Positions 1,850 to 42,084 of a stretch of DNA of 64,000 bases are shown here, piece by piece. Position numbers and translations under genes: made by a program. The notes under the pieces are model-generated. The model saw only the letters and a program-made list of their open reading frames with translations, did no database searches and was not told the DNA's origin. The stretch's first letter is position 1. Every line of letters starts with the position of its first letter. The stretch is taken from IMG/VR virus record IMGVR_UViG_3300020057_000001, positions 96,072-160,071 of that record. One strand, 5' to 3'. This DNA comes from a virus.

Positions 1850-1876
1850 TGTTCGGACGGGATGTCCGAAACTTTA
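1850..1876 (-). promoter_or_regulatory. sigma28/FliA-like promoter upstream of the transglycosylase
   Basis: TAAAGTTT-N11-TCCGAACA. Overlaps a perfect inverted repeat TTCGGAC-N5-GTCCGAA (1852-1870). Confidence 0.55.
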
Positions 1877-4008: not shown

Positions 4009-5010
4009 TTACACTCCTACTGCTGTTACGACCTCTTGAAAAAGGAAGTTTACGTCATTATCGGCGAGTTCGTCCACCATATGAGACAAAACATCTAAAT
4101 AAGTTTTACGGTCTGTGGAACTAGAGGAGAACACGACGTCGTCCGCCGCAAGTATTATTTTTACACCTAGCGCGTTAAATTCTTTGTAAGCATCGCTTTT
4201 CTTAAACTTTGAGAGTTCTAAGAAGGAGCCTGACAGCTTGAGACGAAAAGAGTCACCTGTGTTAAACAGCTCTACACGCGGTAGATTTTCTACCTTGCAC
4301 TCGTAGGTCAATTTTCGAGGAAGACCGAGCGAGATTAAATTTTCAGTGTACGTCCCTGCGCTGAAGTTAAATAGAGATATCGTCTTTTCCGCTACTTCGC
4401 CAAACGAGTGGTGAAAAGGTGTACCTACGTATATGACGTTTGAGTGAGGCTTTTGTCTATCGTGAAAGTGTCCCGCAATAAGAAGGGGCCAATTAGCGTC
4501 CCACCTGTCACCTTTTGCGCAGACGACTTTAGGCGCCATAAACGAGCCCTCGATTTCGGGGTGCGCAAACACCGCTGAAGATGTGCGCCAGTCGGGTAGC
4601 AAATCTAGAGCTTCTACAAGTCGTCCTGGCGGGGTGTACGGTGTGAAGGAAAATGATAAGCCACCTATAGTGGCTTGAGTAGGGTGGTCAACTATAGTGA
4701 TATTGCGTAGGTTTTTTAGAACTTTAAACGGATGGTCTGATTCAAGAAACCGTGAAGGCGCTACCATATCGTGATTACCGATAAGGAGGTAGACGGGTAC
4801 ATGTTCAGCTAGGCTCTTAATCCAATCGTATGCAGTGTTTAAAAGCGTACTGTGACAAACTGCGTGGGTGTGGTTAAGGTCGCCCGTGATCACTACAGCG
4901 TCGGGTTTGGTTTGCTTTACGACTTCTAACGTAGTCTCTGCCATCTTAAGAAAAACGGGTAGAGTACTCATTTGACAATGAGGGTCACCTATCACGAGAA
5001 CATTAGACAT
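4009..5010 (-). CDS. sbcD: SbcD/Mre11/T4 gp47-like metallophosphoesterase nuclease
   Basis: GDPH, GDLNH, GNHD and GHFH phosphoesterase motifs; adjacent to sbcC. Confidence 0.9.
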   Translation of the reverse strand: MSNVLVIGDPHCQMSTLPVFLKMAETTLEVVKQTKPDAVVITGDLNHTHAVCHSTLLNTAYDWIKSLAEHVPVYLLIGNHDMVAPSRFLESDHPFKVLKNLRNITIVDHPTQATIGGLSFSFTPYTPPGRLVEALDLLPDWRTSSAVFAHPEIEGSFMAPKVVCAKGDRWDANWPLLIAGHFHDRQKPHSNVIYVGTPFHHSFGEVAEKTISLFNFSAGTYTENLISLGLPRKLTYECKVENLPRVELFNTGDSFRLKLSGSFLELSKFKKSDAYKEFNALGVKIILAADDVVFSSSSTDRKTYLDVLSHMVDELADNDVNFLFQEVVTAVGV

Positions 5011-10078: not shown

Positions 10079-10746
10079 GGCAAATCCTCGTATTTTTTGA
10101 GTAGTGTAGCGGCTTCGTCCATGCTCTTGGCGAAACACTCTACCTGTACTTTAAATGTTTTGGCAAAAGATAACAGGTTGACGTCAGGTGGGTTACCCCA
10201 GACTAATTTACGGTGGCGTAACGGATGCACAAGGCAGAGCGTTAAAAGCCCGAGGTCCCAAGCAAACTGCCCATAGGAAGTTTTGGCAACAGGTTCTTTC
10301 ACGTCGTGAGAATACGGTGTTAGATCCCATACGTTCCCTGCGTTGGTTGAGTCTTCTCGGTACCATGAGGTTTGGTCCCAGGTCGGAGGCGTCGTGCCTT
10401 TGGAAAGAATGACTGCGGCCTCGCCTAGTTTGGATAGTGTGCCTCTTTTCGAGGTCGTCTGGTAGTGCATAAACACGACGTCACCAAACGTAAGCTGCGG
10501 GTACGCCGAAAGGTCTGCGGTATGCGACATCGCTTTTACAAGGTCCATCTTGCTATGTCTAAAGGTCAGTAAGGTGACACTATCACTAGAGGTGCCTTGG
10601 TTCAAACGAGTGAGGAGGGTTTTTGCTTCTTCTTGTTTGACGGGCATGTTGAACACGTAGACGTCGGCACTCGGCATAGGGGCTTCCCACACACTGTCAG
10701 TGCTGACGACTTGAATTGAGATAAGATTGTCTTCAGACTTCATCAT
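10075..10746 (-). CDS. Hypothetical protein resembling a catalytically degenerate beta-class N4C/N6A DNA methyltransferase
   Basis: Collinear MTase-like blocks (SADVYVFNMPV, GEAAVILSKG, GNVWDL, GQFAWDL) but no xPPY or DPFxGxG motif. Probable start MMKSE at 10746/10743. Confidence 0.45.
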   Translation of the reverse strand: MMKSEDNLISIQVVSTDSVWEAPMPSADVYVFNMPVKQEEAKTLLTRLNQGTSSDSVTLLTFRHSKMDLVKAMSHTADLSAYPQLTFGDVVFMHYQTTSKRGTLSKLGEAAVILSKGTTPPTWDQTSWYREDSTNAGNVWDLTPYSHDVKEPVAKTSYGQFAWDLGLLTLCLVHPLRHRKLVWGNPPDVNLLSFAKTFKVQVECFAKSMDEAATLLKKYEDLP

Positions 10747-11107
10747 CGGGGGTAGCCTCTTTTGCAAACTTAGAGAAGCCTGCTTGGTCGTGTCGGTTAA
10801 ATGCAACGATGTCCGTAAGGACAACTTCTTGAATTAAGTCTTCTGTTATAGTTTTGTCGGCTTCTTCAAACTCTACGTAGAAACTGCTCATAAAACCGTG
10901 AGCGATTACTACAGAGCCGCGCTTGACATGCTGTAAAGCATGACGAGCTACATCGTCTTTCGCAACTACCGTGTGGGGGAAGGATTCACCTCGGCTGTTT
11001 ACGATACCGATATCAAATTTAACTAGGGAGCCGCCGTTTCGGCGGGTTTTTACGTTAAGGTCAGAAGTTACAACCCCCATCAACTCACACCTGAAGTACG
11101 AAAACAT
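10733..11107 (-). CDS. ssb: Single-stranded DNA-binding protein (OB fold)
   Basis: L-x-G-x-x-x-x-D pattern, VKRGSVVIAHG and acidic C-terminal tail PDDEV. Confidence 0.7.
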   Translation of the reverse strand: MFSYFRCELMGVVTSDLNVKTRRNGGSLVKFDIGIVNSRGESFPHTVVAKDDVARHALQHVKRGSVVIAHGFMSSFYVEFEEADKTITEDLIQEVVLTDIVAFNRHDQAGFSKFAKEATPDDEV

Positions 11108-22738: not shown

Positions 22739-22750
22739 AAGGATTTCACA

Positions 22751-22903
22751 ATGCTCGGCAAAAAGATCAAAGACAAAATGAATACATGTTGGGGTGGCTC
22801 TATGGAAAAAGCGGATGGCTGCGAGAAAGCGCCCAAGCTGGAAAAGTCCAAAGAAGAAAAAGCCCTCTTGCTAAAGTCTGTCGTTAAAAAATTAAAACTC
22901 TAA
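22751..22903 (+). CDS. 50-aa basic protein made largely of the KS/KA and KLK motifs of the downstream array
   Basis: MLGKKIKDKM...MEKA...LEKS...LLLKSVVKKLKL; AAGGA RBS. Confidence 0.55.
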   Translation: MLGKKIKDKMNTCWGGSMEKADGCEKAPKLEKSKEEKALLLKSVVKKLKL

Positions 22904-22904
22904 G

Positions 22905-25900
22905 GTGACCGTTGTGCAACCCACTCGCTTGTCTTCGCTGGTCCGTAAATTAAAAAATAAAGTGGTAGCGCGCAGGGAAAATACTTTACATCCTGACGTT
23001 CATGCACAACTCTGGTCGGAACCAGAGGCCGAAACGATGCAAAAGTCAGACAAGCTCCCACACTACCAAAAGTTTATGGGCACTCACCCTAAAGCTCAAG
23101 AAACAGCAAGCTGGGTGGATGATAATATAAGCCACCGAGGGTTGGCTGAATTTGGCATGAGGCAAGCCAAGACAAGACCAGAAGGGTTAGGCAACGAAGA
23201 AAAGTCTCAACTAAAGCACTTTAACGATTCCCTACACATGCCGGAAGTGAAAAAGGGCGCAGGAGAGTTGACGAAAGATCACACTTGGGAAAGTGGGATT
23301 GAAAAGTTAAACGCACATGAAGCGGCGTACACTGAAAAACATAAAAAAATAGCACCCTCGCTTGTGCCTTCGGAAGGCGAAAAACTCCTTGACTTAGGCG
23401 AAGGCGTCGGCCTTTATAATCTACCTCTTGATGGTGCGCGCAAGAACAAACATGAAGCAGTGGGCATGGGTCACTGCGCTACTGCACTTGAGGGTGGTGA
23501 TCTTTGGTCGATCCGCAAAGACCATGGCAACGGGATGGTGGAACCTATGGTTACCCTTTCTCACGCGGATGGGTACGTAGGTGAAGTGAAGGGAAAACAC
23601 AACTGGAAGCCTTCAGAAAAACACCACTCAGCTATTTTGAAAGTTTTGGCAAGTGACTTAGTAAAGGGTTTTGTTGGTGGCGGTTATGCGCCAGAAAGCA
23701 ATTTTAGCTTAAATGACGTAAAACCTGAATGGAAACAGAAGCTCACATCCGTTAAGCCTACGCTCATGCAAAAACCTTACATAGAAACGTTACCGCTACC
23801 ATTTGCGGACGGGTATAACCACGAGCCCGACGTCCCGACAATTGCAAAAATCAAAGACCCTGCAAAAATGCTTCGCCTCGCCCAAGCAAGCGAGCCCAAA
23901 TCCGCTGTTCACAATTACTCAGCCAAAAACCCCAACATTTCTCCCGAAGTTGCACAGCACTTAGCGCAAACAAACAACCCAGGCTCTAGGGTTCACGAAA
24001 ACTTAGCCAAAAACCCCAACCTCTCTCCAGAAGTTGCACATCATTTAGTCCAAACAAACAAGCCCAGATCCGGCGTTCACGTTCTCTTAGCCGAAAACCC
24101 CAACCTTTCTCCAGAAGCTGTGAAGCACTTAGCCCAAACAAACGAGCCCGATTCGCCCGTTCACGGAATCTTAGCCGAAAACCCCAACCTTTCTCCCGAA
24201 CTTGCGCAGCACTTAGCCCAAACAAACGAGCCCGATTACCCCATTCACAACAGCTTAGCCAAAAACCCCAACCTCTCTCCAGAAGTTGCACATCATTTAG
24301 CCCAAACAAACAAGCCCGATTCCGACGTTCACAAATACTTAGCCAAAAACCCCAACCTCCCACCAGAAGTTGCACAACATTTAGCCCAAACAAACAAGCC
24401 AGGGGCCTTCGTTCACGTACTCTTAGCCAAAAACCCCAACCTCTCTCCAGAACTCGCACATCATTTAGCCCAAACAGACAAGCCAGGGGCCTTCGTTCAC
24501 AACAGCTTAGCTCAAAACCCCAACCTCTCTCCAGAACTCGCACATCATTTAGCCCAAACAAACAAGCCCGATTCCTCCGTTCACCTTGCCTTAGCCAAAA
24601 ACCCCAACCTTTCTCCCGAACTTGCACATCATTTAGCCCAAGCAAGCGGACCCGCATCCGGCGTTCACCTTGCCTTAGCCAAAAACCCCAACCTTTCTCC
24701 AGAACTCGCACATCATTTAGCCCAAGCAAACGAGCCCGTATCCTCCGTTCACCTTCTCTTAGCCAAAAACCCCAACCTTTCTCCAGAAGCTGCGCAGCAT
24801 TTAGCCCAAACAAACAAGCCCGATTCCTCCATTCACGCATACTTAGCTGAAAACCCCAACCTTTCTCCAGAAGCTGCGCAGCATTTAGCCCAAACAAACA
24901 AGCCCGATTCCGACGTTCACAACAGCTTAGCCCAAAACCCCAAATACGCACATCTTGCGTTATCCGCACCACGCCCTCAACAAGCTACGCACATCCAAAA
25001 ACTTATCGGCATTCTCAACGACGAAAACGCTGATAGAGGTCTTCAACGTCAAGCCGCACAAGAAATTAAAACAAGAAGAGAAGAAGAACTGCAACACCGA
25101 CTGTCTGACAAAGGCGATATGCAAGACCTCTTAAATTTAGCGGAATCTTCAGACGACGACGTGTCTGAAAAAGCCACTAAAGAAATTCAGAGAAGAAACC
25201 TACAAAAATCAATGCGTAAGTCCGAGAGCAAGGCCAAAACAAGTGTAGTAGCTAAGTTAAAAGCCAAAATAACTACAAAACCAAAAGACGCTCCGGTTCC
25301 TCCCCACGAGGTCATTGATTCAGGCATTTTGACGCCTTTCCATCAAACGTTAATTATGCACGGATCAAAAGTCTCATTAAAAGAAGCACGCGTCGGGCAT
25401 TCAGAAGTAAACCCTAGCAGTAATAAGGAGCGGGCGGTGAATAAGGATCTTAAAAAGGGCGATATCGTTGGTGGAAACCCTGAAGCAAAAGAAAAACTAG
25501 CACTCACGAACGAAAACAGGGTGTCTTCGAGCCCCGCCGCGATTGGTGCATATAAAAAACCATTTCAATTTACACAGCGCGACGGGGCTAGTGGACGGCG
25601 CGTTAACGTACAAACCAGCAGTGGTAAAAATATCATGTCACATTTTGACCATGCGGCGCATCAAGACTTCAGCTCTGCGGATCACAAAGAAGCCGCCGTT
25701 GCCCACCAGAGACACCTTATTGAGTTAAAGGAGGGTCGACCGCACCCAGACCTTCTAAAGTTTCATCAAGACCAGTACAAAAACCATTGGCAGCAACACC
25801 AAGATCTAAAGAACCGGAGTAACACGATGTTAGGTAAGTCCTTAAAGGCAAAGTTTCTCAAAAAGGCTTCTCTTGACAAATCACAGACTTTAAGCCATTC

Positions 25901-26054
25901 TTCAGCGCCTAAGCTTTCCAAGTCCTCCACGCTGGGACAGAGAATCAAGGCTGCTCTGGCAAGTCCTGAGATGCCGACCTTTCCACGGAACCACCACTCC
26001 GAAGTGCCTCACCATGACCCCCGAGACGTAAAATATTTTGATATCGAGGAATAA
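22905..26054 (+). CDS. Array member 1: PcfJ-like N-terminal domain + 12.5 x 28-aa LRV-like helical repeats + KS-delimited C-terminal modules
   Basis: E..GMGHC...WSIRK...EPMVT...GEVKGKHN motif. Repeat LAKNPNLSPExAxHLAQTNxPxxxVHxx at ~23901-24942. Confidence 0.75.
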   Translation: MTVVQPTRLSSLVRKLKNKVVARRENTLHPDVHAQLWSEPEAETMQKSDKLPHYQKFMGTHPKAQETASWVDDNISHRGLAEFGMRQAKTRPEGLGNEEKSQLKHFNDSLHMPEVKKGAGELTKDHTWESGIEKLNAHEAAYTEKHKKIAPSLVPSEGEKLLDLGEGVGLYNLPLDGARKNKHEAVGMGHCATALEGGDLWSIRKDHGNGMVEPMVTLSHADGYVGEVKGKHNWKPSEKHHSAILKVLASDLVKGFVGGGYAPESNFSLNDVKPEWKQKLTSVKPTLMQKPYIETLPLPFADGYNHEPDVPTIAKIKDPAKMLRLAQASEPKSAVHNYSAKNPNISPEVAQHLAQTNNPGSRVHENLAKNPNLSPEVAHHLVQTNKPRSGVHVLLAENPNLSPEAVKHLAQTNEPDSPVHGILAENPNLSPELAQHLAQTNEPDYPIHNSLAKNPNLSPEVAHHLAQTNKPDSDVHKYLAKNPNLPPEVAQHLAQTNKPGAFVHVLLAKNPNLSPELAHHLAQTDKPGAFVHNSLAQNPNLSPELAHHLAQTNKPDSSVHLALAKNPNLSPELAHHLAQASGPASGVHLALAKNPNLSPELAHHLAQANEPVSSVHLLLAKNPNLSPEAAQHLAQTNKPDSSIHAYLAENPNLSPEAAQHLAQTNKPDSDVHNSLAQNPKYAHLALSAPRPQQATHIQKLIGILNDENADRGLQRQAAQEIKTRREEELQHRLSDKGDMQDLLNLAESSDDDVSEKATKEIQRRNLQKSMRKSESKAKTSVVAKLKAKITTKPKDAPVPPHEVIDSGILTPFHQTLIMHGSKVSLKEARVGHSEVNPSSNKERAVNKDLKKGDIVGGNPEAKEKLALTNENRVSSSPAAIGAYKKPFQFTQRDGASGRRVNVQTSSGKNIMSHFDHAAHQDFSSADHKEAAVAHQRHLIELKEGRPHPDLLKFHQDQYKNHWQQHQDLKNRSNTMLGKSLKAKFLKKASLDKSQTLSHSSAPKLSKSSTLGQRIKAALASPEMPTFPRNHHSEVPHHDPRDVKYFDIEE

Positions 26055-26056
26055 AA

Positions 26057-28564
26057 GTGGAAAAGTTAGCAAAAGCTGGGTTTACACAACTGAAACAGAT
26101 GTTTGCGGAAACCAACGATCACGACCACGTCGTAAAATGGGCTGCTGACAGCATCAAACCTAACGACATGCAGTCTTGGTACTTGCGCAACTATAAGCAA
26201 AATCCGGCTATTCACACAAAGGCCAACCAAGAAAAAATCGCACATTTTTCTGGAATGCATGGTCTTTCTGAGGATATCAAAAACGTTAAATTAGATAAAA
26301 ACGACACGTTAGAATCAGGTTTAGCGAAATACGATCAGGCTGAAAAAAAATGGCAATCCAGTAGTGGGAGCCGTTTTACTGCTCCAGAAGGTAAGAAGAT
26401 CGTTGACCTTGGTAACAACATGGGTTGGTACAATCTCAAAAAGCCTACGTCAGATGAAGAGGCTAGCTGCATGGGACATTGTGGAAATTATGGAAATCCT
26501 CACGAAAAAGACCAAATTTTTTCTTTGCGAAAAGAAGTAAAAGTTGGAAACAAGACCTATCACGAGCCTATGTCAACTGCCATTTACAATAAAGGTTGGC
26601 TGGGGGAAATGAAAGGTCGAGCAAATTCTCGTCCAGGTGCGAAGTTTCATGAACACTATGCGGCACTGTTGAAACACCCTAAAATCAAAGGGTTAATCGG
26701 GGCGGGGCATAAACCACACGAAAATTTTCATTTCGACGACCTAAGCCCAGAACTTCAACAGCAAGTCAAAACAGCAAACCCAAAGATGGTGGACTTAAGA
26801 AGTAATGCTTGGGACACAGCAACAAAACATAAAGCCACAGCGTCCGTTCCGAAAATTGAAAAGTATCAGAGCACTGTCAAAGACATTCACCGATCGACTG
26901 AACTGAAAGATCAATTGGATCAGGGACATCCAATGGACGCTCTTGACCCAAACGACTTAAGACTAGTCGTTGATCATCCAGCTTTTCAAAAAGGGCACCT
27001 TGACAAATTAGTAAAGGGTCTAGCGGATCAAAAAGGCATCAAGGATGTGTATTCAAAACTCCAAGCATATGGCGCTATTGAGAGATCCCCACATTTAAAC
27101 GACCAGCACATCGACCACTTAATCGATTCAGATGAAACGGCTAACACAGCTCAATTATTAAGAAAAAAACTCAACCAAAGCCACGTAGACAACATCGTTC
27201 AAAAAGCTCCTGCCATGGCAGCAGAACAGTTAAAAGACCACCGTCTGTTAAACCAAAGCCACATAACCCATATTGTTAAAGAATACCCCGGTAGAGCAGC
27301 CCTATATTTAAACAACCACCCCCTCTTAAACGCAACCCACATAGACCAAATTGCTCAAAAAGCACCCCACGCAGCAGCCGTACATTTAAAAGACCACCCC
27401 CTTCTCAACGCAAGCCACATAGACCACATTGTCCGACAAGAACCCAGAGAAGCAGCGAAACATTTAAAAGACCACCCCCTCTTAAACGCAAGCCACATAG
27501 ACCGTATTGCGCAAGACGAACCCTTCGCCGCAGCAAGACATTTAACCGACCACCCCGTCTTCAACGCAAGCCACATAGACCGTATTGTCCAACAAGACCC
27601 CGCTTCCGCCGCCGCAAATTTAAAAGACCACCCCCTCTTTAACCAAAGCCACCTAGACCAAATTGTTCAAGGCAACTCCGGCGCAGCAGCCGTACATTTA
27701 AAAGACCACCCCCTTCTCAACGCAAGCCACATAGACCGTATTGTTCAAAAAGAACCCGGCACAGCAGCCTACCATTTAAACAACCACCCCCTCTTCAACG
27801 CAAGCCACATAACCCAGCTTGCCCAAAAAGACCCCAACGCCGCAGCCCTATATTTAAATAATCACCGCCTCTTCAACCAAAGCCATATAGACCACATTGT
27901 TCAAGAGCACCCCAACGCAGCGCTAGAGTATTTAAGAAAACACCCCCTTCTCAACGTAAGCCACATAACCCATATTGCCCAAAAAGAACCCGGCGCAGCC
28001 GCCCAATATTTAAACGACCACCCTCTCTTCAACGCAAGCCATATAGACCACATTGTTCAACAAGACCCCTATAGAGCAGCTGGATTTTTAAACGACCACC
28101 CCCTCTTTAACCAAAGCCACATAACCCATATTGTTCAAGAAGCACCCCACATAGCAGCCGAATATTTAAAAGACCACCCCCTTCTCAACCAAAGCCATAT
28201 AGACCACATGGTTCAAGAAGCACCCTTCAGAGCAGCCGCATATTTAAAAGACCACCCCCTTCTCAACCAAAGCCATATAGACCACATTGTTCAAGAAGCA
28301 CCCCACATAGCAGCCGAATATTTAAAAGACCACCCCCTCTTTGCAGAAGCTATGAGACGCGCTAAAGCTAAAAAAGTACAGAAACCCGAAGCAACTGCTC
28401 CGCTAACCAAATCTGAGAAAAACTTAAAGAGCGTCGTTCAAAAATTGAAACGTAAGGCTACACCACAAACACCAGACACAGCGTTCGAAGCCCAAACCGC
28501 TAGGAAAAACCTTCTCAGTAGTATAGCATCCAAACTGAAGAAGATACCCGCTGGCCCAACTTGA
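26057..28564 (+). CDS. Array member 2: 375-aa conserved N-terminal region + 15 x 26-aa His-rich variable repeats
   Basis: Repeat HIDHIVQxxPxxAAxxLKDHPLLNxS at 27182-28351. Confidence 0.85.
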   Translation: MEKLAKAGFTQLKQMFAETNDHDHVVKWAADSIKPNDMQSWYLRNYKQNPAIHTKANQEKIAHFSGMHGLSEDIKNVKLDKNDTLESGLAKYDQAEKKWQSSSGSRFTAPEGKKIVDLGNNMGWYNLKKPTSDEEASCMGHCGNYGNPHEKDQIFSLRKEVKVGNKTYHEPMSTAIYNKGWLGEMKGRANSRPGAKFHEHYAALLKHPKIKGLIGAGHKPHENFHFDDLSPELQQQVKTANPKMVDLRSNAWDTATKHKATASVPKIEKYQSTVKDIHRSTELKDQLDQGHPMDALDPNDLRLVVDHPAFQKGHLDKLVKGLADQKGIKDVYSKLQAYGAIERSPHLNDQHIDHLIDSDETANTAQLLRKKLNQSHVDNIVQKAPAMAAEQLKDHRLLNQSHITHIVKEYPGRAALYLNNHPLLNATHIDQIAQKAPHAAAVHLKDHPLLNASHIDHIVRQEPREAAKHLKDHPLLNASHIDRIAQDEPFAAARHLTDHPVFNASHIDRIVQQDPASAAANLKDHPLFNQSHLDQIVQGNSGAAAVHLKDHPLLNASHIDRIVQKEPGTAAYHLNNHPLFNASHITQLAQKDPNAAALYLNNHRLFNQSHIDHIVQEHPNAALEYLRKHPLLNVSHITHIAQKEPGAAAQYLNDHPLFNASHIDHIVQQDPYRAAGFLNDHPLFNQSHITHIVQEAPHIAAEYLKDHPLLNQSHIDHMVQEAPFRAAAYLKDHPLLNQSHIDHIVQEAPHIAAEYLKDHPLFAEAMRRAKAKKVQKPEATAPLTKSEKNLKSVVQKLKRKATPQTPDTAFEAQTARKNLLSSIASKLKKIPAGPT

Positions 28565-28620
28565 ATAGGCTACTCAACCTTGACCCGAGACGTAAAATAT
28601 TTTGATATCGAGGAGTAAAA

Positions 28621-31600
28621 GTGGAAAAGTTAGCAAAAGCTGGGTTTACACAACTGAAACAGATGTTTGCAGATTCGGACGATCACGACCACGTCGTTAA
28701 GTGGGCTGCTGACAGCATCAAACCAAACGACATGCAGTCTTGGTACTTGCGAAATTACAAACAAAATCCGGCTATTCACACAACGGAAAACCAAGAAAAA
28801 ATTGCACATTTTTCGGGAATGCATGGTCTTTCCGAGGATATCAAAAACGTTAAGCTGGACAAGAACGACACGTTAGAATCAGGTTTAGCGAAATACGATC
28901 AGGCCGAGAAAAAATGGCAATCCAGTAGTGGGAGCCGTTTCACGGCTCCAGAAGGTAAGAAGATCGTTGAGCTTGGGAACGGTATGGGTTGGTACGATTT
29001 AAAGAAGCCGGTGTCAAGTGAAGAGGCTAACTGCATGGGCCATTGTGGAAATTCGGGAAATCCTCACGAAAAAGACCAAATTTTTTCTTTGCGAAAAGAA
29101 GTAAAAGTCGGAAATAAAACGTACCACGAGCCCATGTCAACTGCTATTTACAATAAGGGTTGGTTAGGCGAAATGAAAGGTCGAGCCAATTCTCGTCCAG
29201 GTGAAAAGTTTCATGAACACTACGCGGCACTCCTAAAGCACCCTAAAATCAAAGGGTTAATCGGTGCGGGGCATAAACCACAAGAAAATTTTCATTTCGA
29301 CGACTTGAGCCCAGAACTTCAACAACAAGTCAAAACAGCAAATCCGGCAATGGTGGACTTAAGAAGTAATGCTTGGGACACAGCAACAAAATACAAAGCC
29401 ACGGCGTCCGTTCCTAAAATTAAAAAATATCAGCATACTGTCAAAGACATTCACCGATCCACGGAACTGAAAGATCAATTGGATCAGGGACATCCAATGG
29501 ACGCGCTCAAGTCAAGCGACTTAAGACTAGTCGTTGACCATCCAGCTTTTCAAAAAGGACACCTTGACAAATTAGTAAAAGGTATAGCTAACCAAAAAGG
29601 CATCAAGGATGTGTATTCAAAACTCCAAGCCTACGGTGCTATTGAAAGATCTCCGCATTTAAACGACCAACACATCGACCACTTAATCGATTCAGATGAG
29701 ATCGCTAACACAGCGCAACTATTAAGAAAAAAACTCAACCAAAGCCACGTAGATAGCATTGTGCAAAAAGCTCCCGTCATGGCAGCAAAACAGTTAAAAG
29801 ACCACCGTCTGTTAAACCAAAGCCACGTAGACCACATTGTTCAAAAAGCCCCTGGCATGGCAGCGGAATATTTAAACGACCACCCCCTCTTCAACGCAAG
29901 CCACATAGACCACATTGCTCAAAAATACCCCTCCAAAGCAGCTGGATATTTAAACGACCACCCCCTCTTCAACCAAAGCCACCTAGACCATATTGTTCAA
30001 GAGTACCCCAACGCAGCCGAATATTTAAAAGACCACCCCCTATTCAACCAAAGCCACGTAGATAGCATTGTGCAAACAGACCCCGGCATGGCAGCAGAAC
30101 AGTTAAAAGACCACCGTCTCTTTAATCAAAGTCATATAGACCGTATTGCGCAAGAATCACCCTACTCAGCAGCAGAACAGTTAAAAGACCACCCCCTTCT
30201 CAACCAAAGCCACATAGACCACATTGTTCAAGAAAACCCCCGCGTAGCCGCCCAATATTTAAATAAGCACCTCCTCCTCAACCAAAGCCACATAGACCAC
30301 ATTGTTCAACAAGACCCCCGCTTAGCAGCCTCCCGTTTAAAAGACCACCCCCTTTTCAACCAAAGCCACATAACACATATTGTTCAACAAGAACCCAGCG
30401 AAGCAGCGGAACAGTTAAAAGACCACCCCCTTCTCAACCAAAGCCACATAGACCACATTGTTCAAGAAAACCCCCGCGTAGCCGCCCAATATTTAAATAA
30501 GCACCTCCTCCTCAACCAAAGCCACATAGACCATATTGTCCAAAAAGAACCCAGCAAAGCAGCCTACCGTTTAAAAGACCACCCACTCTTCAACGCAAGC
30601 CACGTAGATCACATTGTCCAAAACGTCCCCTATTCCGCAGTCGAGGCTTTACAAAACCACCCCCTCCTCAACCAAAGCCACATAGACCACCTTGTTCAAC
30701 AAGTACCCCACATAGCAGCCGAATATTTAAAAGACCACCCCCTCTTTGCAGAAGCTGTGAGACGAGCCGAAGCTAAAAAAGTACAGAAATCCGAAGCAAC
30801 TGCTCCGCTAACCAAATCTGAGAAAAACTTAAAAAGCGTCGTTCAAAAATTGAAACGTAAGGCTACACCGCAAAAGCCTTGGAACCCAGAATCATACGGG
30901 TATGACGACGGCTCCGACGATGTTTACAATGACATCGACGACGCGGTAGATCATCACAACCTATCCGCAAACCGTCGTATGGAAAGATATCAGGAAATAA
31001 ATCCGGAACACACAGAAAAAATGATGGACCCGAGTGAGTTAATTCCCTCTGCGCACCTACCTCAAACGTCAGGTTGGTTAAAGCAGCACCCGGAGCAAGA
31101 GTGGATCAATCGCTTGAAAGAGCAATTTCCAGATCGAGATTTCGCTCACACTTTAGACAAAAAGAATAAAAAAGCGTTATCGCCAGCCATCACCATCAAC
31201 GGTGAACTTGCGGACGGTTATGGACGAGCCCACCTTGCGCATGCCCTTGGTGAGCACTTACCGACGTATGATTATAAAAGAAAATTACAAAAATCCATCG
31301 TAGGCGTACCGCAAATGAAAAAATCCAACGACCTTGCCCAAGACCTTAAGAAACAGGGCGCAAAAGACCCCAAAGCCATACTTCAAACGCAAAAAGAAAA
31401 AGAAGACCTAAAGAAAGGCGACGTAGTAACTTTAGGCGCAAAAATCAAAGCAAAGATCAAAGCAAAAAAAGAAAGCTCTTCCACGGAAGCGTCAACGGTA
31501 AAACGGCTTTCCCCGGAAGAGCAATTGGCCAATAGAAAAAAACATCAGGCTGAGGCAAACAGCTCCGCAATGACCGACGTCTCTTCTCATAGGAGAGGAG

Positions 31601-33357
31601 CCTACGCCCCGCAGAATAGTGCAGCGGAACGCCTGAAGGAACGTGCTGAGACAGTTAAAAAGCTAAAAGACCAAAGCGACCATAAAGACCGCCTCGTTCA
31701 CATGATGGGCGAACAACACGGACCCGTAGGCGCTTCCGCAGCAAGCCATGTTTTTGAAGCAAACGCAGATCGTTATTCGTTATCGTTAAATCGTGACGAC
31801 ACCCGTGAAAAGGAACGCGTCGCAGGAAAAGCGAAGACCTATATTACGCATTACGGACAGACGCCCGAAGGGCACCACGTGTTTCTTCACCAGAACGCAG
31901 GATTAGCCCGTCTTATGGCAGTGCCTTCAGACGGGTCTGCTGTCAAGCATCTTGGGTCAATTCACCGCGCAACAGACGCAGTACGCGTACCTAATCCTAA
32001 ATACTATACTTCTGCGGAAGCAGCTCAAGCGGATCAAGCCGATTCGCTCGAACGTTACAAGCAGAGCCATCAAGATCCCAAAGGTAACGCTTTACGCGAA
32101 AAAGAATTGCGATCAACGAAACTTCTCTCAGATGCCATACCTTCGATGGCAAAGTACAAAGACGCGGGCGAATTCAATAAAAAGGACTACACGATTTCTA
32201 GGGGACCGCATAGTTGGGGATTCGAAATACGCAAAAAGGGCAATGATCGCGAATCGTTTAGATACCACGTACAAAAAGGAGTGCCGAAAGACCATGCAGA
32301 ACACAATAGCTTGGACGCGCAACCTCTAGTAATTACGCCCGCGTACACTAAGGATGAAGAGAACCACGGACAAGCGATGCGCTTCTTTCAACAGCATATG
32401 CAAGGACATTTTAAAGTGAAGAGCGCCTACGGTGACTTCAGTTTACAGCCAGAACAGAATCCTTCTTGGACGCCACAACCAGAAGCAGTACCCCCTCGTG
32501 GCGAAAAAGTGCCAAGTATGTTTGGTAAAAAGACGGAGCAACCTAAAAAGCCTAACCCCTTTTCAGTGGTTAAATCTCAGCGCCTCGCCAAAGGTGATGT
32601 AATAAATTTAGGCGCAAAAATCAAAGCGAAGATCAAAGAAAAAAAAGAAAGCGTCAAGCCAGGGAGCCCTGAGGCACGCCAAGCCACAATCGAAAAGTAC
32701 GGCCCCTCGATGGCGGATCTTTATGGCGCATTCGACAAGCACAAAGCGAAGATCGAGAAAAAGAAAGCTCCTGTCTCACGGGATGCGCAGATTGAGCAAG
32801 CTTTCAACCAGCAGAACGGCACACCAGATTTAGTAGATACCCCGCGACCCCCTATGCCTTTACATACCCCTCAAGAGACAGACGCAAGACACCTCCACGA
32901 TGTTCTTGTGAACGAGTACGATTACGACAGTAAGATACATAGACCGTCCGACGGCTATGAAGACGGAGACCTTGTCGAAGACTATGCAGCAATTCACTTG
33001 GGTAGCACACCGCAACACCGCAGCGAACAAGGGATACACAGACAAATTCCTTTTGCTCAATGGAAAGAACTTCACGAATCACCCGTCCACGAGCAGGGGT
33101 CAGACGCCAAAGATGCGCAAGCACCAATGGTTGAACGTCTTGCCTCGGATGCTATAGAGACCGCCGGAAGCCAAGGCTTTAGTCGTATCTTCCTGCATCC
33201 TGATTACAATTCTAAAGACTTTGCGGCTTTCAAATTTAAGCAGGCAGCCGACAAAGCCCCCAAGCCGGATTTGAGCCCTGAAGCCCAAACCGCTAGGAAA
33301 AACCTTCTGAGTAGTATAGCCTCCAAACTGAAGAAGAAACCCGATGGCCCAACTTAA
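28621..33357 (+). CDS. Array member 3: same N-terminal region + 13 repeats + ~800-aa modular insertion
   Basis: Repeats at 29746-30756; insertion ~30880-33267 within the shared C-terminal tail. Confidence 0.85.
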   Translation: MEKLAKAGFTQLKQMFADSDDHDHVVKWAADSIKPNDMQSWYLRNYKQNPAIHTTENQEKIAHFSGMHGLSEDIKNVKLDKNDTLESGLAKYDQAEKKWQSSSGSRFTAPEGKKIVELGNGMGWYDLKKPVSSEEANCMGHCGNSGNPHEKDQIFSLRKEVKVGNKTYHEPMSTAIYNKGWLGEMKGRANSRPGEKFHEHYAALLKHPKIKGLIGAGHKPQENFHFDDLSPELQQQVKTANPAMVDLRSNAWDTATKYKATASVPKIKKYQHTVKDIHRSTELKDQLDQGHPMDALKSSDLRLVVDHPAFQKGHLDKLVKGIANQKGIKDVYSKLQAYGAIERSPHLNDQHIDHLIDSDEIANTAQLLRKKLNQSHVDSIVQKAPVMAAKQLKDHRLLNQSHVDHIVQKAPGMAAEYLNDHPLFNASHIDHIAQKYPSKAAGYLNDHPLFNQSHLDHIVQEYPNAAEYLKDHPLFNQSHVDSIVQTDPGMAAEQLKDHRLFNQSHIDRIAQESPYSAAEQLKDHPLLNQSHIDHIVQENPRVAAQYLNKHLLLNQSHIDHIVQQDPRLAASRLKDHPLFNQSHITHIVQQEPSEAAEQLKDHPLLNQSHIDHIVQENPRVAAQYLNKHLLLNQSHIDHIVQKEPSKAAYRLKDHPLFNASHVDHIVQNVPYSAVEALQNHPLLNQSHIDHLVQQVPHIAAEYLKDHPLFAEAVRRAEAKKVQKSEATAPLTKSEKNLKSVVQKLKRKATPQKPWNPESYGYDDGSDDVYNDIDDAVDHHNLSANRRMERYQEINPEHTEKMMDPSELIPSAHLPQTSGWLKQHPEQEWINRLKEQFPDRDFAHTLDKKNKKALSPAITINGELADGYGRAHLAHALGEHLPTYDYKRKLQKSIVGVPQMKKSNDLAQDLKKQGAKDPKAILQTQKEKEDLKKGDVVTLGAKIKAKIKAKKESSSTEASTVKRLSPEEQLANRKKHQAEANSSAMTDVSSHRRGAYAPQNSAAERLKERAETVKKLKDQSDHKDRLVHMMGEQHGPVGASAASHVFEANADRYSLSLNRDDTREKERVAGKAKTYITHYGQTPEGHHVFLHQNAGLARLMAVPSDGSAVKHLGSIHRATDAVRVPNPKYYTSAEAAQADQADSLERYKQSHQDPKGNALREKELRSTKLLSDAIPSMAKYKDAGEFNKKDYTISRGPHSWGFEIRKKGNDRESFRYHVQKGVPKDHAEHNSLDAQPLVITPAYTKDEENHGQAMRFFQQHMQGHFKVKSAYGDFSLQPEQNPSWTPQPEAVPPRGEKVPSMFGKKTEQPKKPNPFSVVKSQRLAKGDVINLGAKIKAKIKEKKESVKPGSPEARQATIEKYGPSMADLYGAFDKHKAKIEKKKAPVSRDAQIEQAFNQQNGTPDLVDTPRPPMPLHTPQETDARHLHDVLVNEYDYDSKIHRPSDGYEDGDLVEDYAAIHLGSTPQHRSEQGIHRQIPFAQWKELHESPVHEQGSDAKDAQAPMVERLASDAIETAGSQGFSRIFLHPDYNSKDFAAFKFKQAADKAPKPDLSPEAQTARKNLLSSIASKLKKKPDGPT

Positions 33358-33426
33358 AAAGGTTGATAACAGGCTTCTCCACAATGACCCCCGAGACGTA
33401 AAATATTTTGATATCGAGGAGTAAAA

Positions 33427-35928
33427 GTGGAAAAGTTAGCAAAAGCCGGATTTAAACAACTGAAACAGATGTTTGCAGATTCGGACGATCACGACCACGT
33501 CGTTAAGTGGGCTGCTGACAGCATAAAGCCAAACGACATGCAGTCTTGGTACTTGCGCAACTATAAGCAAAACCCCACTATCCACACAAAAGCCAACCAA
33601 GAAAAAATTGCACATTTTTCAGGAATGCATGGGATTTCTGACGATATCAAAAACGTTAAGCTGGACAAGAACGACACGTTAGAATCCGGTTTAGCGAAAT
33701 ACGATCAGGCCGAGAAAAAGTGGCAATCGAGTAGTGGGAGCCGTTTCACGGATCCAGAAGGTAAAAAGATTGTCGACCTTGGGAACAACATGGGTTGGTA
33801 CAATCTCAAAAAGCCTACGTCAGATGAAGAGGCTAGCTGCATGGGACATTGTGGAAATTATGGAAATCCTCACGAAAAAGACCAAATTTTTTCTTTGCGA
33901 AAAGAAGTAAAAGTTGGAAACAAGACCTATCACGAGCCTATGTCAACTGCCATTTACAATAAAGGTTGGCTGGGGGAAATGAAAGGTCGAGCAAATTCTC
34001 GTCCAGGTGCGAAGTTTCATGAACACTATGCGGCACTGTTGAAACACCCTAAAATCAAAGGGTTAATCGGGGCGGGGCATAAACCACACGAAAATTTTCA
34101 TTTCGACGACCTAAGCCCAGAACTTCAACAGCAAGTCAAAACAGCAAACCCAAAGATGGTGGACTTAAGAAGTAATGCTTGGGACACAGCAACAAAACAT
34201 AAAGCCACAGCGTCCGTTCCGAAAATTGAAAAGTATCAGAGCACTGTCAAAGACATTCACCGATCGACTGAACTGAAAGATCAATTGGATCAGGGACATC
34301 CAATGGACGCTCTTGACCCAAACGACTTAAGACTAGTCGTTGATCATCCAGCTTTTCAAAAAGGGCACCTTGACAAATTAGTAAAGGGTCTAGCGGATCA
34401 AAAAGGCATCAAGGATGTGTATTCAAAACTCCAAGCATATGGCGCTATTGAGAGATCCCCACATTTAAACGACCAGCACATCGACCACTTAATCGATTCA
34501 GATGAAACGGCTAACACAGCTCAATTATTAAGAAAAAAACTCAACCAAAGCCACGTAGACAGGATTGTTCAAAAAGCTCCTGCCATGGCAGCAGAACAGT
34601 TAAAAGACCACCGTCTCTTCAACGCAAACCACCTAGACCACATTGTTCAACAAGAACCCCGCGCAGCAGCCCTATATTTAAACAACCACCCCCTCTTAAA
34701 CGCAACCCACATAGACCAAATTGTTCAAGAAAACCCCTACGCAGCAGTCAAATATTTAAAAGACCACCCACTCTTAAACGCAAATCACATAACACACCTT
34801 GTCCAAAAAGAACCCCGCAGCGTAGCACTATATTTAAACGACCACCCCCTCTTCAACGCAAGCCACATAGACCAAATTGTTCAAGAAAACCCCTACGCAG
34901 CAGTCAAATATTTAAAAGACCACCCACTCTTCAACGCAAACCACCTAGACCACATTGTTCAACAAGAACCCCGCGCAGCAGCCATACATTTAAAAGACCA
35001 CCCCCTGTTAAATCAAAGTCACGTAGACCACATTGTTCAAGAAGCACCCCACAGAGCAGCCGAATATTTAAAAGACCACCCACTCTTAAACGCAAAGCAC
35101 ATAGACCATCTTGTTCAAGGAGCACCCTTCCTTGCCGCGCGAGCGTTAAAAGACCACCCACTCTTCAACGCAAGCCACATATACCCAGCTATTCAAGAGA
35201 ACCCCTCTGAAGCACTCGACTATTTTAAAGACCACCCACTCTTAAACGCAAATCACATAACACACCTTGTCCAAAAAGAACCTGTTCGTGCGGCACGACA
35301 GTTAAAGGGCCACCCACTCTTAAACGCAAAGCACATAGACCATCTTGTTCAAGGAGCACCTGCCATAGCAGCGGAGTATTTAAACAACCACCCCCTTCTC
35401 AACGCAAGCCACATAGACCACATTGTTCAAGAAGCACCCCGCGCAGCAGCCATACATTTAAAAGACCACCCCCTCTTCAACGCAAGCCACATAGACCAAA
35501 TTGTTCAAAAATCACCTCACTACGCAGCCGCATATTTAAAAGACCACCCCCTTCTCAACGCAAGCCACATAACCCATATTGTCAAAAAAGAACCGTTCGA
35601 GGCAGTCCGAGAGTTAAAAGACCACCCCCTTCTCAACGCAAGCCACATAGACCATCTTGTTCAACAAGAACCCCACACCGCAGCCAAATATTTAAAAGAC
35701 CACCCCCTTTACGCAGAAGCTGTGAGACGAGCTGAAGCTAAAAAAGTACAGAAATCCGAAGCAACAGCTCCGTTAACCAAATCTGAGAAAACCTTAAAGA
35801 GCGTCGTTCAAAAATTGAAACGCAAGGTGACACCGCAAAAGCCCGACACAGCGCTCGAAGCCCAAACTGCTAGGAAAAACCTTCTGAGTAGTATAGCCTC
35901 CAAACTGAAGAAGCTACCCGATGCCTGA
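33427..35928 (+). CDS. Array member 4: same N-terminal region + 15 repeats
   Basis: Repeats at 34552-35721. Confidence 0.85.
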   Translation: MEKLAKAGFKQLKQMFADSDDHDHVVKWAADSIKPNDMQSWYLRNYKQNPTIHTKANQEKIAHFSGMHGISDDIKNVKLDKNDTLESGLAKYDQAEKKWQSSSGSRFTDPEGKKIVDLGNNMGWYNLKKPTSDEEASCMGHCGNYGNPHEKDQIFSLRKEVKVGNKTYHEPMSTAIYNKGWLGEMKGRANSRPGAKFHEHYAALLKHPKIKGLIGAGHKPHENFHFDDLSPELQQQVKTANPKMVDLRSNAWDTATKHKATASVPKIEKYQSTVKDIHRSTELKDQLDQGHPMDALDPNDLRLVVDHPAFQKGHLDKLVKGLADQKGIKDVYSKLQAYGAIERSPHLNDQHIDHLIDSDETANTAQLLRKKLNQSHVDRIVQKAPAMAAEQLKDHRLFNANHLDHIVQQEPRAAALYLNNHPLLNATHIDQIVQENPYAAVKYLKDHPLLNANHITHLVQKEPRSVALYLNDHPLFNASHIDQIVQENPYAAVKYLKDHPLFNANHLDHIVQQEPRAAAIHLKDHPLLNQSHVDHIVQEAPHRAAEYLKDHPLLNAKHIDHLVQGAPFLAARALKDHPLFNASHIYPAIQENPSEALDYFKDHPLLNANHITHLVQKEPVRAARQLKGHPLLNAKHIDHLVQGAPAIAAEYLNNHPLLNASHIDHIVQEAPRAAAIHLKDHPLFNASHIDQIVQKSPHYAAAYLKDHPLLNASHITHIVKKEPFEAVRELKDHPLLNASHIDHLVQQEPHTAAKYLKDHPLYAEAVRRAEAKKVQKSEATAPLTKSEKTLKSVVQKLKRKVTPQKPDTALEAQTARKNLLSSIASKLKKLPDA

Positions 35929-35986
35929 CTTGAACAACTTCCACCTTGACACGAGACGTAAAATATTTTGATATCGAGGAGTAAAA

Positions 35987-38701
35987 GTGGAAAAGTTAGC
36001 AAAAGCCGGGTTTACACAACTAAAACAGATGTTTGCAGATTCGGACGATCACGACCATGTCGTGAAATGGGCTGCCGATAGCATCAAACCTAACGACATG
36101 CAGTCTTGGTACTTGCGAAATTACAAACAAAATCCCGCTATCCACACAACTGACAACCAAGAAAAAATTGCACATTTTTCAGGAATGCACGGTCTTTCCG
36201 AGGACATCAAAAACGTTAAATTAGATAAAAACGACACGTTAGAATCCGGTTTAGCAAAATACGATCAGGCTGAAAAAAAATGGCAATCGAGTAGTGGGAG
36301 CCGTTTCACGGCTCCAGAAGGTAAAAAGATTGTCGACCTTGGTAACAACATGGGTTGGTACAATCTCAAAAAGCCTACGTCAGATGAAGAGTCTAGTTGT
36401 ATGGGGCATTGTGGAAATTATGGAAATCCTCACGAAAAAGACCAAATCCTTTCGTTAAGAAAAGAAGTAAAAGTCGGAAATAAAACCTATCACGAGCCCA
36501 TGTCAACTGCTATTTACAATAAAGGTTGGCTAGGCGAAATGAAAGGTCGAGCAAATTCTCGTCCAGGTGAGAAGTTGCATGAACACTATGCCGCTCTTTT
36601 AAAGCACCCTAAAATCAAAGGGTTAATTGGTGCAGGCCATAAACCCGAAGGAAATTTTCATTTCGACGACTTAAGCCCAGAACTTCAACAGCAAGTCAAA
36701 ACAGCAAATCCGGCAATGGTGGACTTAAGAAGTAATGCTTGGGATACAGCAACAAAACACAAAGCCACAGCGTCCGTGCCTAAAATTAAAAAATATCAGC
36801 ATACTGTCAAAGACATTCACCGATCCACGGAACTAAAAGATCAATTGGATCAGGGACATTCAATCGATGCGCTCAAGTCAAACGACTTAAGACTAGTCGT
36901 TGATCATCCAGCTTTTCAAAAAGGGCACCTTGACAAATTAGTAAAAGGTATAGCTAACCAAAAAGGCATCAAGGATGAATACTCAAAACTCCAAGCATAT
37001 GGTGCTATTGAAAGATCTCCGCATTTAAACGACCAACACATCGACCACTTAATCGATTCAGATGAGATCGCTAACACAGCTCAATTATTAAGAAAAAAAC
37101 TCAACCAAAGCCACGTACACAGGATTGTGGAAACAGACCCCGTCATGGCAGCAGAACAGTTAAAAGACCACCGTCTCTTCAACGCAAGCCACATAACCCA
37201 CATTGTTCAAGAATCACCCGGCGCAGCAGCCGTACATTTAAAAGACCACCCCCTTCTCAACGCAAGCCACATAGACCGTATTGTTCAAGAAAAACCCTAC
37301 AGAGCAGCAGAACAGTTAAAAGACCACCCCCTCTTTAATCAAAGTCACATAGACCACCTTGTTCAAAAAGACCCCCGCGCAGCAGCCGAATATTTAAACG
37401 ACCACCCCCTCTTTAATCAAAGCCACATAGACCATATTGCTCAAAAAACACCCTACGAAGCAGCCGTATATTTAAAAGACCACCCCCGTCTCAACGCAAG
37501 CCACATAGACCACATTGCTCAAAAAGCACCCCACGCAGCAGCCGAACATCTAAAAGACCACCCCCGTCTCAACGCAAACCACATAGACCAAATTGCCCAA
37601 CAAGAACCCTTCAGAGCAGCACAATATTTAGGCACCCACCCTCTCTTCAACGCAAGCCACATATTTTCTGCTATCCACCAAGCGCCCCGCGAGGCAGCCG
37701 ACTATTTAAAAGACCACCCCCTCTTCAACGCAAGCCACATAGACCATATTGTTCAAACATCTCCGAGAGATGCGGCCCGATTTTTAAAAAACCACCCCCT
37801 TCTCAACCAAAGCCACATAACCCACATTGTTCAAGAATCGCCCGCCACAGCAGCCGACTATTTAAAAGACCACCCCCTCTTTAATCAAAGCCACATAACC
37901 CACATTGTCCAAAAATCACCCGACGCAGCCTCCCGTTTAAAAGACCACCCCCTTTTCAACCAAAGCCACATAACACATATTGTTCAACAAGAACCCAGCG
38001 AAGCAGCGGAACAGTTAAAAGACCACCCCCTTCTCAACCAAAGCCACATAGACCAAATTGTTCACAGAAACCCCTACGCCGCAGCCGACTATTTAAGAAA
38101 ACACCCCCTCTTCAACGCAAGCCACATAGACCAAATTGTTCAAGAAAACCCCTACGCAGCAGTCAAATATTTAAAAGACCACCCACTCTTCAACGCAAAC
38201 CACCTAGACCACATTGTTCAACAAGAACCCCGCGCAGCAGCCTTACATTTAAAAAACCACCCCCTCTTCAACGCAAGCCACATAGACCACATTGTTCAAC
38301 AAGACCCCTCCAAAGCTGCCATATATTTAAACGACCACCCCCTTCTCAACGCAAGCCACATAGACCACATTGTTCAACAAGACCCCGGCGCAGCAGCCTT
38401 ACATTTAAAAAACCACCCCCTTCTCAACGCAAGCCACATAGACCACATTGTTCAACAAGACCCCTCCAAAGCTGCCATATATTTAAACGACCACCCCCTT
38501 TACGCAGAAGCTGTGAGACGAGCTGAAGCTAAAAAAGTGGAAAAGTCCGCAGCAACAGCTCCGTTAACCAAATCTGAGAAAAACTTAAAGAGCGTCGTTC
38601 AAAAATTGAAACGCAAAGTGACCCCACTAACACCACCCAAAGCCCAACCTGCTAGGAAAAACCTTCTCAGTAGTGTAGCCTTAAAACTAAGAGGAAAATA
38701 A
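35987..38701 (+). CDS. Array member 5: same N-terminal region + 18 repeats
   Basis: Repeats at 37112-38512. Confidence 0.85.
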   Translation: MEKLAKAGFTQLKQMFADSDDHDHVVKWAADSIKPNDMQSWYLRNYKQNPAIHTTDNQEKIAHFSGMHGLSEDIKNVKLDKNDTLESGLAKYDQAEKKWQSSSGSRFTAPEGKKIVDLGNNMGWYNLKKPTSDEESSCMGHCGNYGNPHEKDQILSLRKEVKVGNKTYHEPMSTAIYNKGWLGEMKGRANSRPGEKLHEHYAALLKHPKIKGLIGAGHKPEGNFHFDDLSPELQQQVKTANPAMVDLRSNAWDTATKHKATASVPKIKKYQHTVKDIHRSTELKDQLDQGHSIDALKSNDLRLVVDHPAFQKGHLDKLVKGIANQKGIKDEYSKLQAYGAIERSPHLNDQHIDHLIDSDEIANTAQLLRKKLNQSHVHRIVETDPVMAAEQLKDHRLFNASHITHIVQESPGAAAVHLKDHPLLNASHIDRIVQEKPYRAAEQLKDHPLFNQSHIDHLVQKDPRAAAEYLNDHPLFNQSHIDHIAQKTPYEAAVYLKDHPRLNASHIDHIAQKAPHAAAEHLKDHPRLNANHIDQIAQQEPFRAAQYLGTHPLFNASHIFSAIHQAPREAADYLKDHPLFNASHIDHIVQTSPRDAARFLKNHPLLNQSHITHIVQESPATAADYLKDHPLFNQSHITHIVQKSPDAASRLKDHPLFNQSHITHIVQQEPSEAAEQLKDHPLLNQSHIDQIVHRNPYAAADYLRKHPLFNASHIDQIVQENPYAAVKYLKDHPLFNANHLDHIVQQEPRAAALHLKNHPLFNASHIDHIVQQDPSKAAIYLNDHPLLNASHIDHIVQQDPGAAALHLKNHPLLNASHIDHIVQQDPSKAAIYLNDHPLYAEAVRRAEAKKVEKSAATAPLTKSEKNLKSVVQKLKRKVTPLTPPKAQPARKNLLSSVALKLRGK

Positions 38702-39130
38702 ATGACAACCCAACCTAAAATTGATTACTCCCCGATTAACATGATGGCACCCCCAAACTTTTACGCCGAAGTGCCGGAGTTCAACATCACACAGAATCAA
38801 GCAACCACCCTCTGGGTACAAGTGTCCCTCACGGACGCTCTTGGTACCCGTAGGCGAATACCCGCAGCGGGAGCCACATACAAGCTGAGGTTTCCGAGAG
38901 CCAGACAAGCGATCGTAGGGTCAGCTACTCAAGGCGCCGACCAAACGTTCGACGTCACCGGAACCCTTCTTTCGGATGATCGTTCTATGGCATCGTTTGC
39001 GCTCACCGCAGACCAAACGAAGCTCGTGTTTCCAGGAAACGTCCTTCTTGTTATCACGGAGGGTGTCAACGTGACCACAATCACTAAACCCCTCGTTCTG
39101 AAAAAACACTTTCCCTTGGGGCAATGTTAA
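38702..39130 (+). CDS. Hypothetical virion protein (beta-rich)
   Basis: Contiguous with the array and the neck gene. Confidence 0.55.
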   Translation: MTTQPKIDYSPINMMAPPNFYAEVPEFNITQNQATTLWVQVSLTDALGTRRRIPAAGATYKLRFPRARQAIVGSATQGADQTFDVTGTLLSDDRSMASFALTADQTKLVFPGNVLLVITEGVNVTTITKPLVLKKHFPLGQC

Positions 39131-39978: not shown

Positions 39979-40010
39979 CCTCTTAAACTCCCTATCATTT
40001 AAAAAAACCC

Positions 40011-40414: not shown

Positions 40415-40524
40415 TAAAATTTTTAACCTCCCGTTATGTCACCCCCTTCTCCAAACTTTAGCCAAAAGACGTGTAAAATAGTAGAGACAGTGTTTTACAC
40501 TCTTCCTTAAACTTGGAGAATACA

Positions 40525-42063: not shown

Positions 42064-42084
42064 GAACTTCCTGTTCTACTGACC

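Follow-up and report, generated by a model that had tools for sequence, protein, structure and literature searches.

How can four neighbouring genes that differ from one another by ~8-11% share a tract of 778 nucleotides (nt) without a single mismatch, and carry other identical blocks at different positions of their repeat arrays? The question is raised by a stretch of 64,000 nt, hereafter the window, which is the last 64 kb (positions 96,072 to 160,071) of the 160,071-bp virus record IMGVR_UViG_3300020057_000001, a metagenome contig in IMG/VR with terminal repeats and a CheckV completeness estimate of 100%. Five large open reading frames (ORFs), m1 to m5, lie back to back on one strand at 22905-38701; the last four of them, m2-m5, probably represent a lineage-specific tandem amplification whose members exchange sequence by general homologous recombination, with a UvsX-like recombinase and an SbcCD-like nuclease as the likely catalysts, a reading to which we assign a probability of roughly 0.85 from the sequence data.

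Regarding their organization, m2-m5 are all on the plus strand and share a colinear N-terminal region of 1,134 nt, with a protein identity of 93-98%, followed by in-frame units of 78 nt, or 26 amino acids (aa), and by a conserved basic tail. m2 (26057..28564) has the N-terminal domain, 15 units (27170-28339) and the basic tail; m3 (28621..33357) has the same domain, 13 units (29734-30744), an insertion of ~2.4 kb and then the shared C-terminal tail; m4 (33427..35928) has the domain and 15 units (34540-35709), and m5 (35987..38701) the domain and 18 units (37100-38500). Two units, one in m3 and one in m5, measure 75 nt. The encoded proteins range from 833 to 1578 aa, with a constant N-terminal domain of ~370 aa, and all four are intact ORFs that begin with GTG and follow a common pre-start segment bearing the ribosome-binding site GAGGAG. 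The differences among the N-terminal regions fall mostly at third codon positions, which indicates that all four copies are under purifying selection.

The identical tracts were mapped by a scan of every diagonal of 22000-40000, which returned 71 exact matches of at least 40 nt. The longest, of 778 nt, joins m2 (26414..27191) to m4 (33784..34561), with diverged flanks on both sides. The second, of 141 nt, joins units 4-6 of m4 (34843..34983) to units 13-15 of m5 (38102..38242), nine units out of register, and reaches 164 nt if two mismatches are allowed; the third, of 131 nt, joins units 8-10 of m3 (30325..30455) to units 11-13 of m5 (37925..38055), again out of register. These three identities had been proposed in an earlier, sequence-only reading of the window, and they proved correct to the base, with 0 mismatches and none extendable by one position. 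Further matches between genes measure 80 nt (29635-29714 of m3 and 37001-37080 of m5), 71 nt (27678-27748 of m2 and 37218-37288 of m5, out of register), 69, 69 and 67 nt. The same reading had also pointed to duplication of units within genes: units 7 and 10 of m3 are indeed 100% identical and belong to a 125-nt duplicate with an offset of three units (30175..30299 and 30409..30533), and units 16 and 18 of m5, which are 98.7% identical, share 77 nt at an offset of two units (38268..38344 and 38424..38500). Likewise, the protein variants that it listed recur in the translations as described, PAMVD and KIKKYQHT in m3 and m5, and NNMGWYNLKKPTSDEE in m2, m4 and m5.

Chance is no explanation for these matches, because they lie far above a null model in which the arrays were rebuilt by resampling each unit column, so that position-specific conservation was kept: over 200 simulations the longest exact match was 40 nt on average and 55 nt at most, and ten observed matches exceed this maximum (141, 131, 125, 77, 71, 69, 59, 57, 57 and 56 nt). 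Breakpoints also lie inside the units; therefore the 78-nt unit is not the unit of exchange. An analysis of tract breakpoints against unit phase was dropped, since the boundary of a tract is by definition the first variable site.

The 778-nt tract stands out against the segment that precedes it. Over the first 357 nt of the genes (26057..26413 in m2, with the corresponding positions of m3, m4 and m5), m2 and m4 are the most diverged pair, with 40 differences (11.2%), 33 of them at third codon positions, as the earlier observation of many synonymous differences had implied; over the next 778 nt they have none. At a divergence of 11.2%, the chance of 778 identical bases is ~1e-40 by our arithmetic. 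Across this segment m3 and m5 differ by 8.2%; a block m2-m3 duplicated into m4-m5 predicts equal ages for the two pairs, and the duplication model fails on the comparison of 0% with 8.2%.

The first 357 nt are themselves a mosaic on the plus strand, made of clustered runs of three incompatible two-by-two patterns. With A for sites that group m2 with m3, B for m2 with m4 and C for m2 with m5, the 25 informative sites read ACCBBBBAABBBCCCCCACCAAAAC, namely 10 runs against 17.5 expected (runs test p=0.0013), and the Hudson-Kaplan Rm is 9. A Sawyer-type test on all 165 polymorphic sites singled out four pairs of genes among the six, each at p<=3e-4: m2-m4 reached p<1e-4; for m3-m4 the significant stretch covers offsets 35-92 (p=3e-4); and for both m2-m5 and m4-m5 it covers offsets 350-397 (p about 1e-4). 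At these last offsets m3 retains the residues of distant, 50%-identical relatives and the other three genes have the alternative, which suggests that the patch common to m2, m4 and m5 is derived and spread among the three. The corresponding m3-specific patch is dense, with 13 changes in 38 nt (28981-29018, m3 offsets 360-397), several of them non-synonymous. Judged on the alignments, no single duplication history fits m2-m5, and exchange between the paralogues is the only reading that does.

As for the repeat units, they do not cluster strictly by gene, which was a check set for the exchange model from the outset. Units of the same gene have a mean nucleotide identity of 75.5%, units of different genes one of 75.1%, and the nearest neighbour is in the same gene for only 20 of the 61 units; on a maximum-likelihood tree of the units, 32 changes of gene label are required, compared with a minimum possible of 3 and a mean of 34.2 after shuffling, with 47 of 200 shuffles as low. 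Positional correspondence is kept only in the first unit of each gene, and partly in the last. When units are typed at 95% identity, type A occupies units 7 and 10 of m3 and type B its unit 9; m4 has type C at units 2 and 6 and type D at units 3 and 5; and m5 has B, D and C at units 12, 14 and 15, and type E at units 16 and 18.

All 59 full-length (78-nt) units of the window form one clade, with a support of 100, against those of the related contigs L002 and L003, which is the classic signature of concerted evolution or of expansion within the lineage. Related contigs have a single m2-type gene with 4-9 units, and two of them, L003 and L005, also have one m1-type gene; the protein identity of L002 and of L003/L005 is 53-55%. 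Since these relatives have one m2-type gene, the four-copy array is specific to this lineage. Within it, gene conversion together with unequal crossover would account for the concerted evolution of the units.

Among the alternatives, the one that survives best, improbable as we consider it, is that the tracts are collapses or chimeric paths of a short-read assembler, perhaps over a mixture of strains, so that no genome carries them twice. The record is indeed a metagenome contig of IMG/VR, and the 131- and 141-nt tracts are close to 127, the typical maximum k with metaSPAdes defaults. The alternative is best discussed with a second contig, L001 (JGI 3300020596, 7,373 nt), found by protein search, which matches the window exactly over 30329-33420, 33485-34561 and 26414-30322; in its 7.3 kb, the only departures from the window are a 64-nt patch in the head of m4 and one change near the contig end. 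Its order is m3 tail, m4 head, the 778-nt tract, m2 body and m3 head, with both contig ends inside the 131-nt tract common to m3 and m5, and it is 3 nt longer than the distance between the two 778-nt copies (7,370 nt). L001 is thus either a loop of the assembly graph or a stretch of an alternative Eulerian path, in which the m2 head goes with the m4 body and the m4 head with the m2 body, and the tails of m3 and m5 are swapped. Its break precisely at the 131-nt repeat, and its passage out of the 778-nt repeat into the body of the other gene, indicate that assemblers struggle here.

A collapse, however, has difficulties of its own. A repeat node with two distinct entries and two exits requires real reads at all four junctions, and L001 independently supplies two of those of the 778-nt tract, from the m4 head into the tract and from the tract into the m2 body. 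Copies that are 10% diverged share no long k-mers, which makes bubble merging impossible; the tracts of up to 125 nt and the fine mosaic of the first 357 nt fit within the length of a single read; and even a strain chimera implies that the population has the same tract in two contexts. The shared tracts exist under either assembly path.

In L001, the start region of m4 (33421..33484, plus strand, offsets -6 to +57) has nine differences from the window in 64 nt, and nine out of nine match m2. The patch is bounded by runs identical between m2 and m4 of 37 and 19 nt; the shorter run is below the overlap needed for a de Bruijn join at k>=21, from which real reads are inferred behind this mosaic. 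From its sequence, the patch looks like a short, real conversion tract that is polymorphic between the two assemblies. The other change (L001:7365, window 30323) creates a TAA codon where m3 unit 8 has Leu; as it lies 9 nt before the end of the contig, it may be either an assembly error at that end or a true nonsense allele. In the JGI annotation of L001, the stop of m2, TGA, was translated as Trp, which gives P0008 (853 aa).

Some points weigh against exchange by homologous recombination as we propose it. The interleaved repeats permit the alternative assembly path, and L001 takes it on leaving the 778-nt repeat for the body of m2, which makes the gene order and the head-to-body phasing of the window tentative; the evidence consists of metagenome contigs, in which bubble-popping could have erased a few real differences within the tracts; L001 may come from another sample than the window contig; and the role of UvsX and SbcCD in these events is putative. 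In practice, short-read metagenome assemblies should not be trusted for the head-to-body phasing of these genes, given that the two assemblies disagree at the 778-nt repeat. Searches with blastn and tblastn of the phage collection, pattern scans of IMG/VR, two metagenome scans and a search for shorter protein fragments gave no further assembly or close relative beyond L001, a result that says little on the rarity of the phage; the phage collection gave only a 28% match, in Salicola phage SCTP-2.

Next in order, and very improbable in our judgement, is a dedicated diversification machinery, be it a retroelement, an invertase or shufflon, or one-way conversion from cassettes into a single expressed copy. 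The pattern that such systems produce is present: unit positions 12, 13, 15, 16, 19 and 20 are hypervariable, with an entropy of 2-3.2 bits, and at all six non-synonymous exceeds synonymous variation (pN > pS), an uncorrected and only suggestive comparison. The machinery itself is not supported, and the features of the genome and of the array largely exclude it. A diversity-generating retroelement was rejected for the lack of any RVT_1 match in the 160-kb genome, 100% complete by CheckV's estimate, and of adenine-specific changes: of 286 differences between near-identical units, 45% involve A and 70% involve C, with no adenine bias. The description of the process as independent of reverse transcriptase (RT) accordingly agrees with both results. 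An invertase or shufflon was rejected because the same 160 kb have no resolvase or tyrosine-recombinase match and 22000-40000 contains no inverted repeat of at least 22 nt. Finally, antigenic variation from silent cassettes, of the vlsE or pilE/pilS type, was rejected because each of the four copies is a complete ORF, and the pre-start segment and the GTG start are common to all; with tracts found in many pair combinations, none of them is a silent donor.

The last alternative, the least probable of the three, holds that there was no exchange and that the tracts are the still unmutated parts of very recent, unevenly diverging duplications. Some duplications are indeed recent, the amplification being specific to this lineage, but the pairwise divergences, the mosaic and the Sawyer-type test already contradict this reading: a divergence of 11% must then stop abruptly at one base and be 0% for 778 nt in the pair that is the most diverged just before, three incompatible groupings alternate within 357 nt, and identical blocks occur at different unit positions.

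General homologous recombination thus seems the most economical explanation for the exchange among m2-m5. Recombination in register would leave, in the shared domain, gene-conversion tracts whose length ranges from tens of nt to 778 nt; recombination out of register by whole 78-nt units, through unequal crossover, synthesis-dependent strand annealing or slippage, would move, duplicate and delete blocks of units within and between genes. Both kinds of exchange were part of the sequence-only reading and hold; its further claim, that the exchange serves diversification, does not follow from the data: the largest tract, of 778 nt, lies in the constant domain, where it homogenizes, and the single clade of window units is concerted evolution.

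The likely catalysts are the UvsX-like recombinase and the SbcCD-like nuclease of the phage, which might act during recombination-dependent replication or break repair. The UvsX-like gene lies at 88.3 kb of the genome, outside the window (RecA, 37.7 bits; phrog_97, 2e-30), and is probably more relevant to the exchange than SbcCD and SSB, which had been put forward as contributors. Of these, the window does encode an SbcC/Rad50-like ATPase (1874..4006; phrog_77, 3e-23) and an SbcD/Mre11-like nuclease (4009..5010; phrog_100, 2e-26), both on the minus strand; the possible SSB, an OB fold on the same strand (10733..11107), is a weak match that at 21.7 bits falls below the Pfam cut-off of 26. These genes are observed in the genome, as the tracts, the mosaic and the lack of clustering are in the array; which of the enzymes act, and how often, we infer.

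Regarding the proteins, the repeat region was predicted with a pLDDT of 88.7, each unit consisting of two helices, of 10 and 7 residues, and a loop of 8 residues; positions 2, 5, 14, 17, 21 and 24 are invariant or nearly so, and the six hypervariable positions map to the inter-helix turn and to one face of the second helix. The model is that of a generic alpha-solenoid: Foldseek with the repeat domain returned only generic Sel1/ARM/TPR solenoids with low TM-scores, and the m2-m5 repeats match no repeat family, LRV included. The predicted location of the hypervariable positions fits a variable binding surface, and is not proof of one. One may think of the array as the phage's repertoire of putative binding proteins, with unit recombination selected because it would keep recombining the six hypervariable surface residues of each unit in new ways; we regard this as doubtful, and selection of the outcome as hypothetical. 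If it were true, many array haplotypes would be expected in natural populations, and the 64-nt patch of L001 would be a first glimpse of them. Given their place between a scaffold-like gene and head genes, the array proteins might be packaged or injected.

The N-terminal domain of m1 or m2 has no Pfam match at E<=1, and Foldseek found nothing for its model (pLDDT 83) at E<=0.001. With VIA-align, the best Z was 7.2 and concerned the helical tail only; a likeness of residues 102-256 to GNAT/HAT1 acetyltransferases was weak (Z 5-5.6), and no fold was assigned. The label of PcfJ-like domain (PF14284) was also discarded, for the domain has no Pfam match and ten family members have no Pfam hit there either. 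Its core nevertheless defines a large family with no Pfam model, counting 1,599 cluster representatives at E<=0.001. In one member, P0007 (JGI, 1073 aa), a 36% identical relative, the shared domain follows a long N-terminal extension, and PF00454 is listed as a precomputed Pfam hit; another member, P0013, has GNAT and nucleotidyltransferase domains; from these extra domains, the shared domain appears fused to varied enzymatic modules.

The first gene of the array, m1 (22905..26054, plus strand), is a diverged paralogue: according to the ORF list and the profile match it carries 28-aa LRV repeats, which among the five genes it alone has (LRV_2 at 8e-33; LRV repeat PF25591 / PF01816), and its N-terminal domain has 27-29% aa identity with the m2 type, at E about 1e-23. 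Inside this gene, at 24002-24922, exact repeats of 41-62 nt link 84-nt LRV units that are 1, 3 or 7 units apart; none is shared with m2-m5, which points to unit-level recombination or slippage there too, with no exchange with the other four genes. The frame of m2 runs on for 17 codons past its TGA stop (28562-28620) and ends in RDVKYFDIEE, which is the C-terminus of m1 (26010-26054); this stretch is most likely the relic of a duplicated m1/m2 junction, now serving as the conserved pre-start segment with the GAGGAG site. The insertion in m3 (30880-33267, ~2.4 kb) is in frame, between the post-repeat tail and the shared C-terminal end, with no Pfam match at E<0.1, and L002 and L003 have other C-terminal extensions following their repeats.

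As for the neighbouring genes, a scaffold-like gene (phrog_15087, weak match at E 2.4e-4) lies 5' of the array, and weak matches to head-tail adaptor and major head proteins lie 3' of it. An HNH/homing-endonuclease-like gene at 42174-43700 (phrog_3339, 3e-85; DUF7487) directly follows an ORF that matches a major head protein family over its first ~135 residues. The head gene may be interrupted here, in the region 40513-43700; the same gene places a source of double-strand breaks 3.5 kb from the array. At the genome ends, the terminal direct repeat sits in a tandem repeat with a period of 87 nt (genome 1-127 and 159858-160071, the latter being 63787-64000 of the window); the first 127 nt of the genome are found again at 159915, and the first 70 nt again at the very end. 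The reported terminal repeat may be an assembly overlap inside this tandem repeat.

In conclusion, the evidence for exchange is clear and the process itself is familiar; the locus offers a clean and well-quantified case of concerted evolution and repeat-block shuffling in a phage genome, in a large uncharacterized protein family. Literature searches on gene conversion between phage paralogues returned no phage case. Phage diversity-generating retroelements of the Bordetella BPP-1 mtd type resemble the array in that variability is concentrated at few positions of a phage protein; the array differs from them by having neither RT, nor a template/variable repeat pair, nor adenine-specific changes. 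A likeness of architecture is found in the TAL effector genes of Xanthomonas, which have 102-nt helical repeats with few specificity residues per unit, and whose paralogues exchange repeat blocks by recombination within the same genome; there, as here, long arrays of helical units are involved, but TAL units are far more uniform and have a known DNA-binding code, while those of m2-m5 are ~75% identical.

In the yeast FLO adhesin family, Christiaens et al. (2012, PMC3512402) describe ectopic recombination among duplicated genes with intragenic tandem repeats, and the parallel is that paralogues with in-frame internal repeats recombine into chimeric alleles by general homologous recombination; the FLO genes are eukaryotic, dispersed or subtelomeric, and experimentally tested, whereas the present array is a tight tandem one in a phage, read from its sequence alone. 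Finally, variable intragenic repeat arrays are described in phages, for VR2 in bbp36 of Bordetella phage BMP-1 and for Tweety gp54 (PMC2884959). These are single genes with units of 12-24 nt, for which exchange between paralogous genes was not described, unlike the array studied here; as in m2-m5, their repeats are in frame and have no link to RT, and between isolates they vary in number and variant composition (PMC2884959), which makes VR2 and gp54 the nearest phage precedents for the array.

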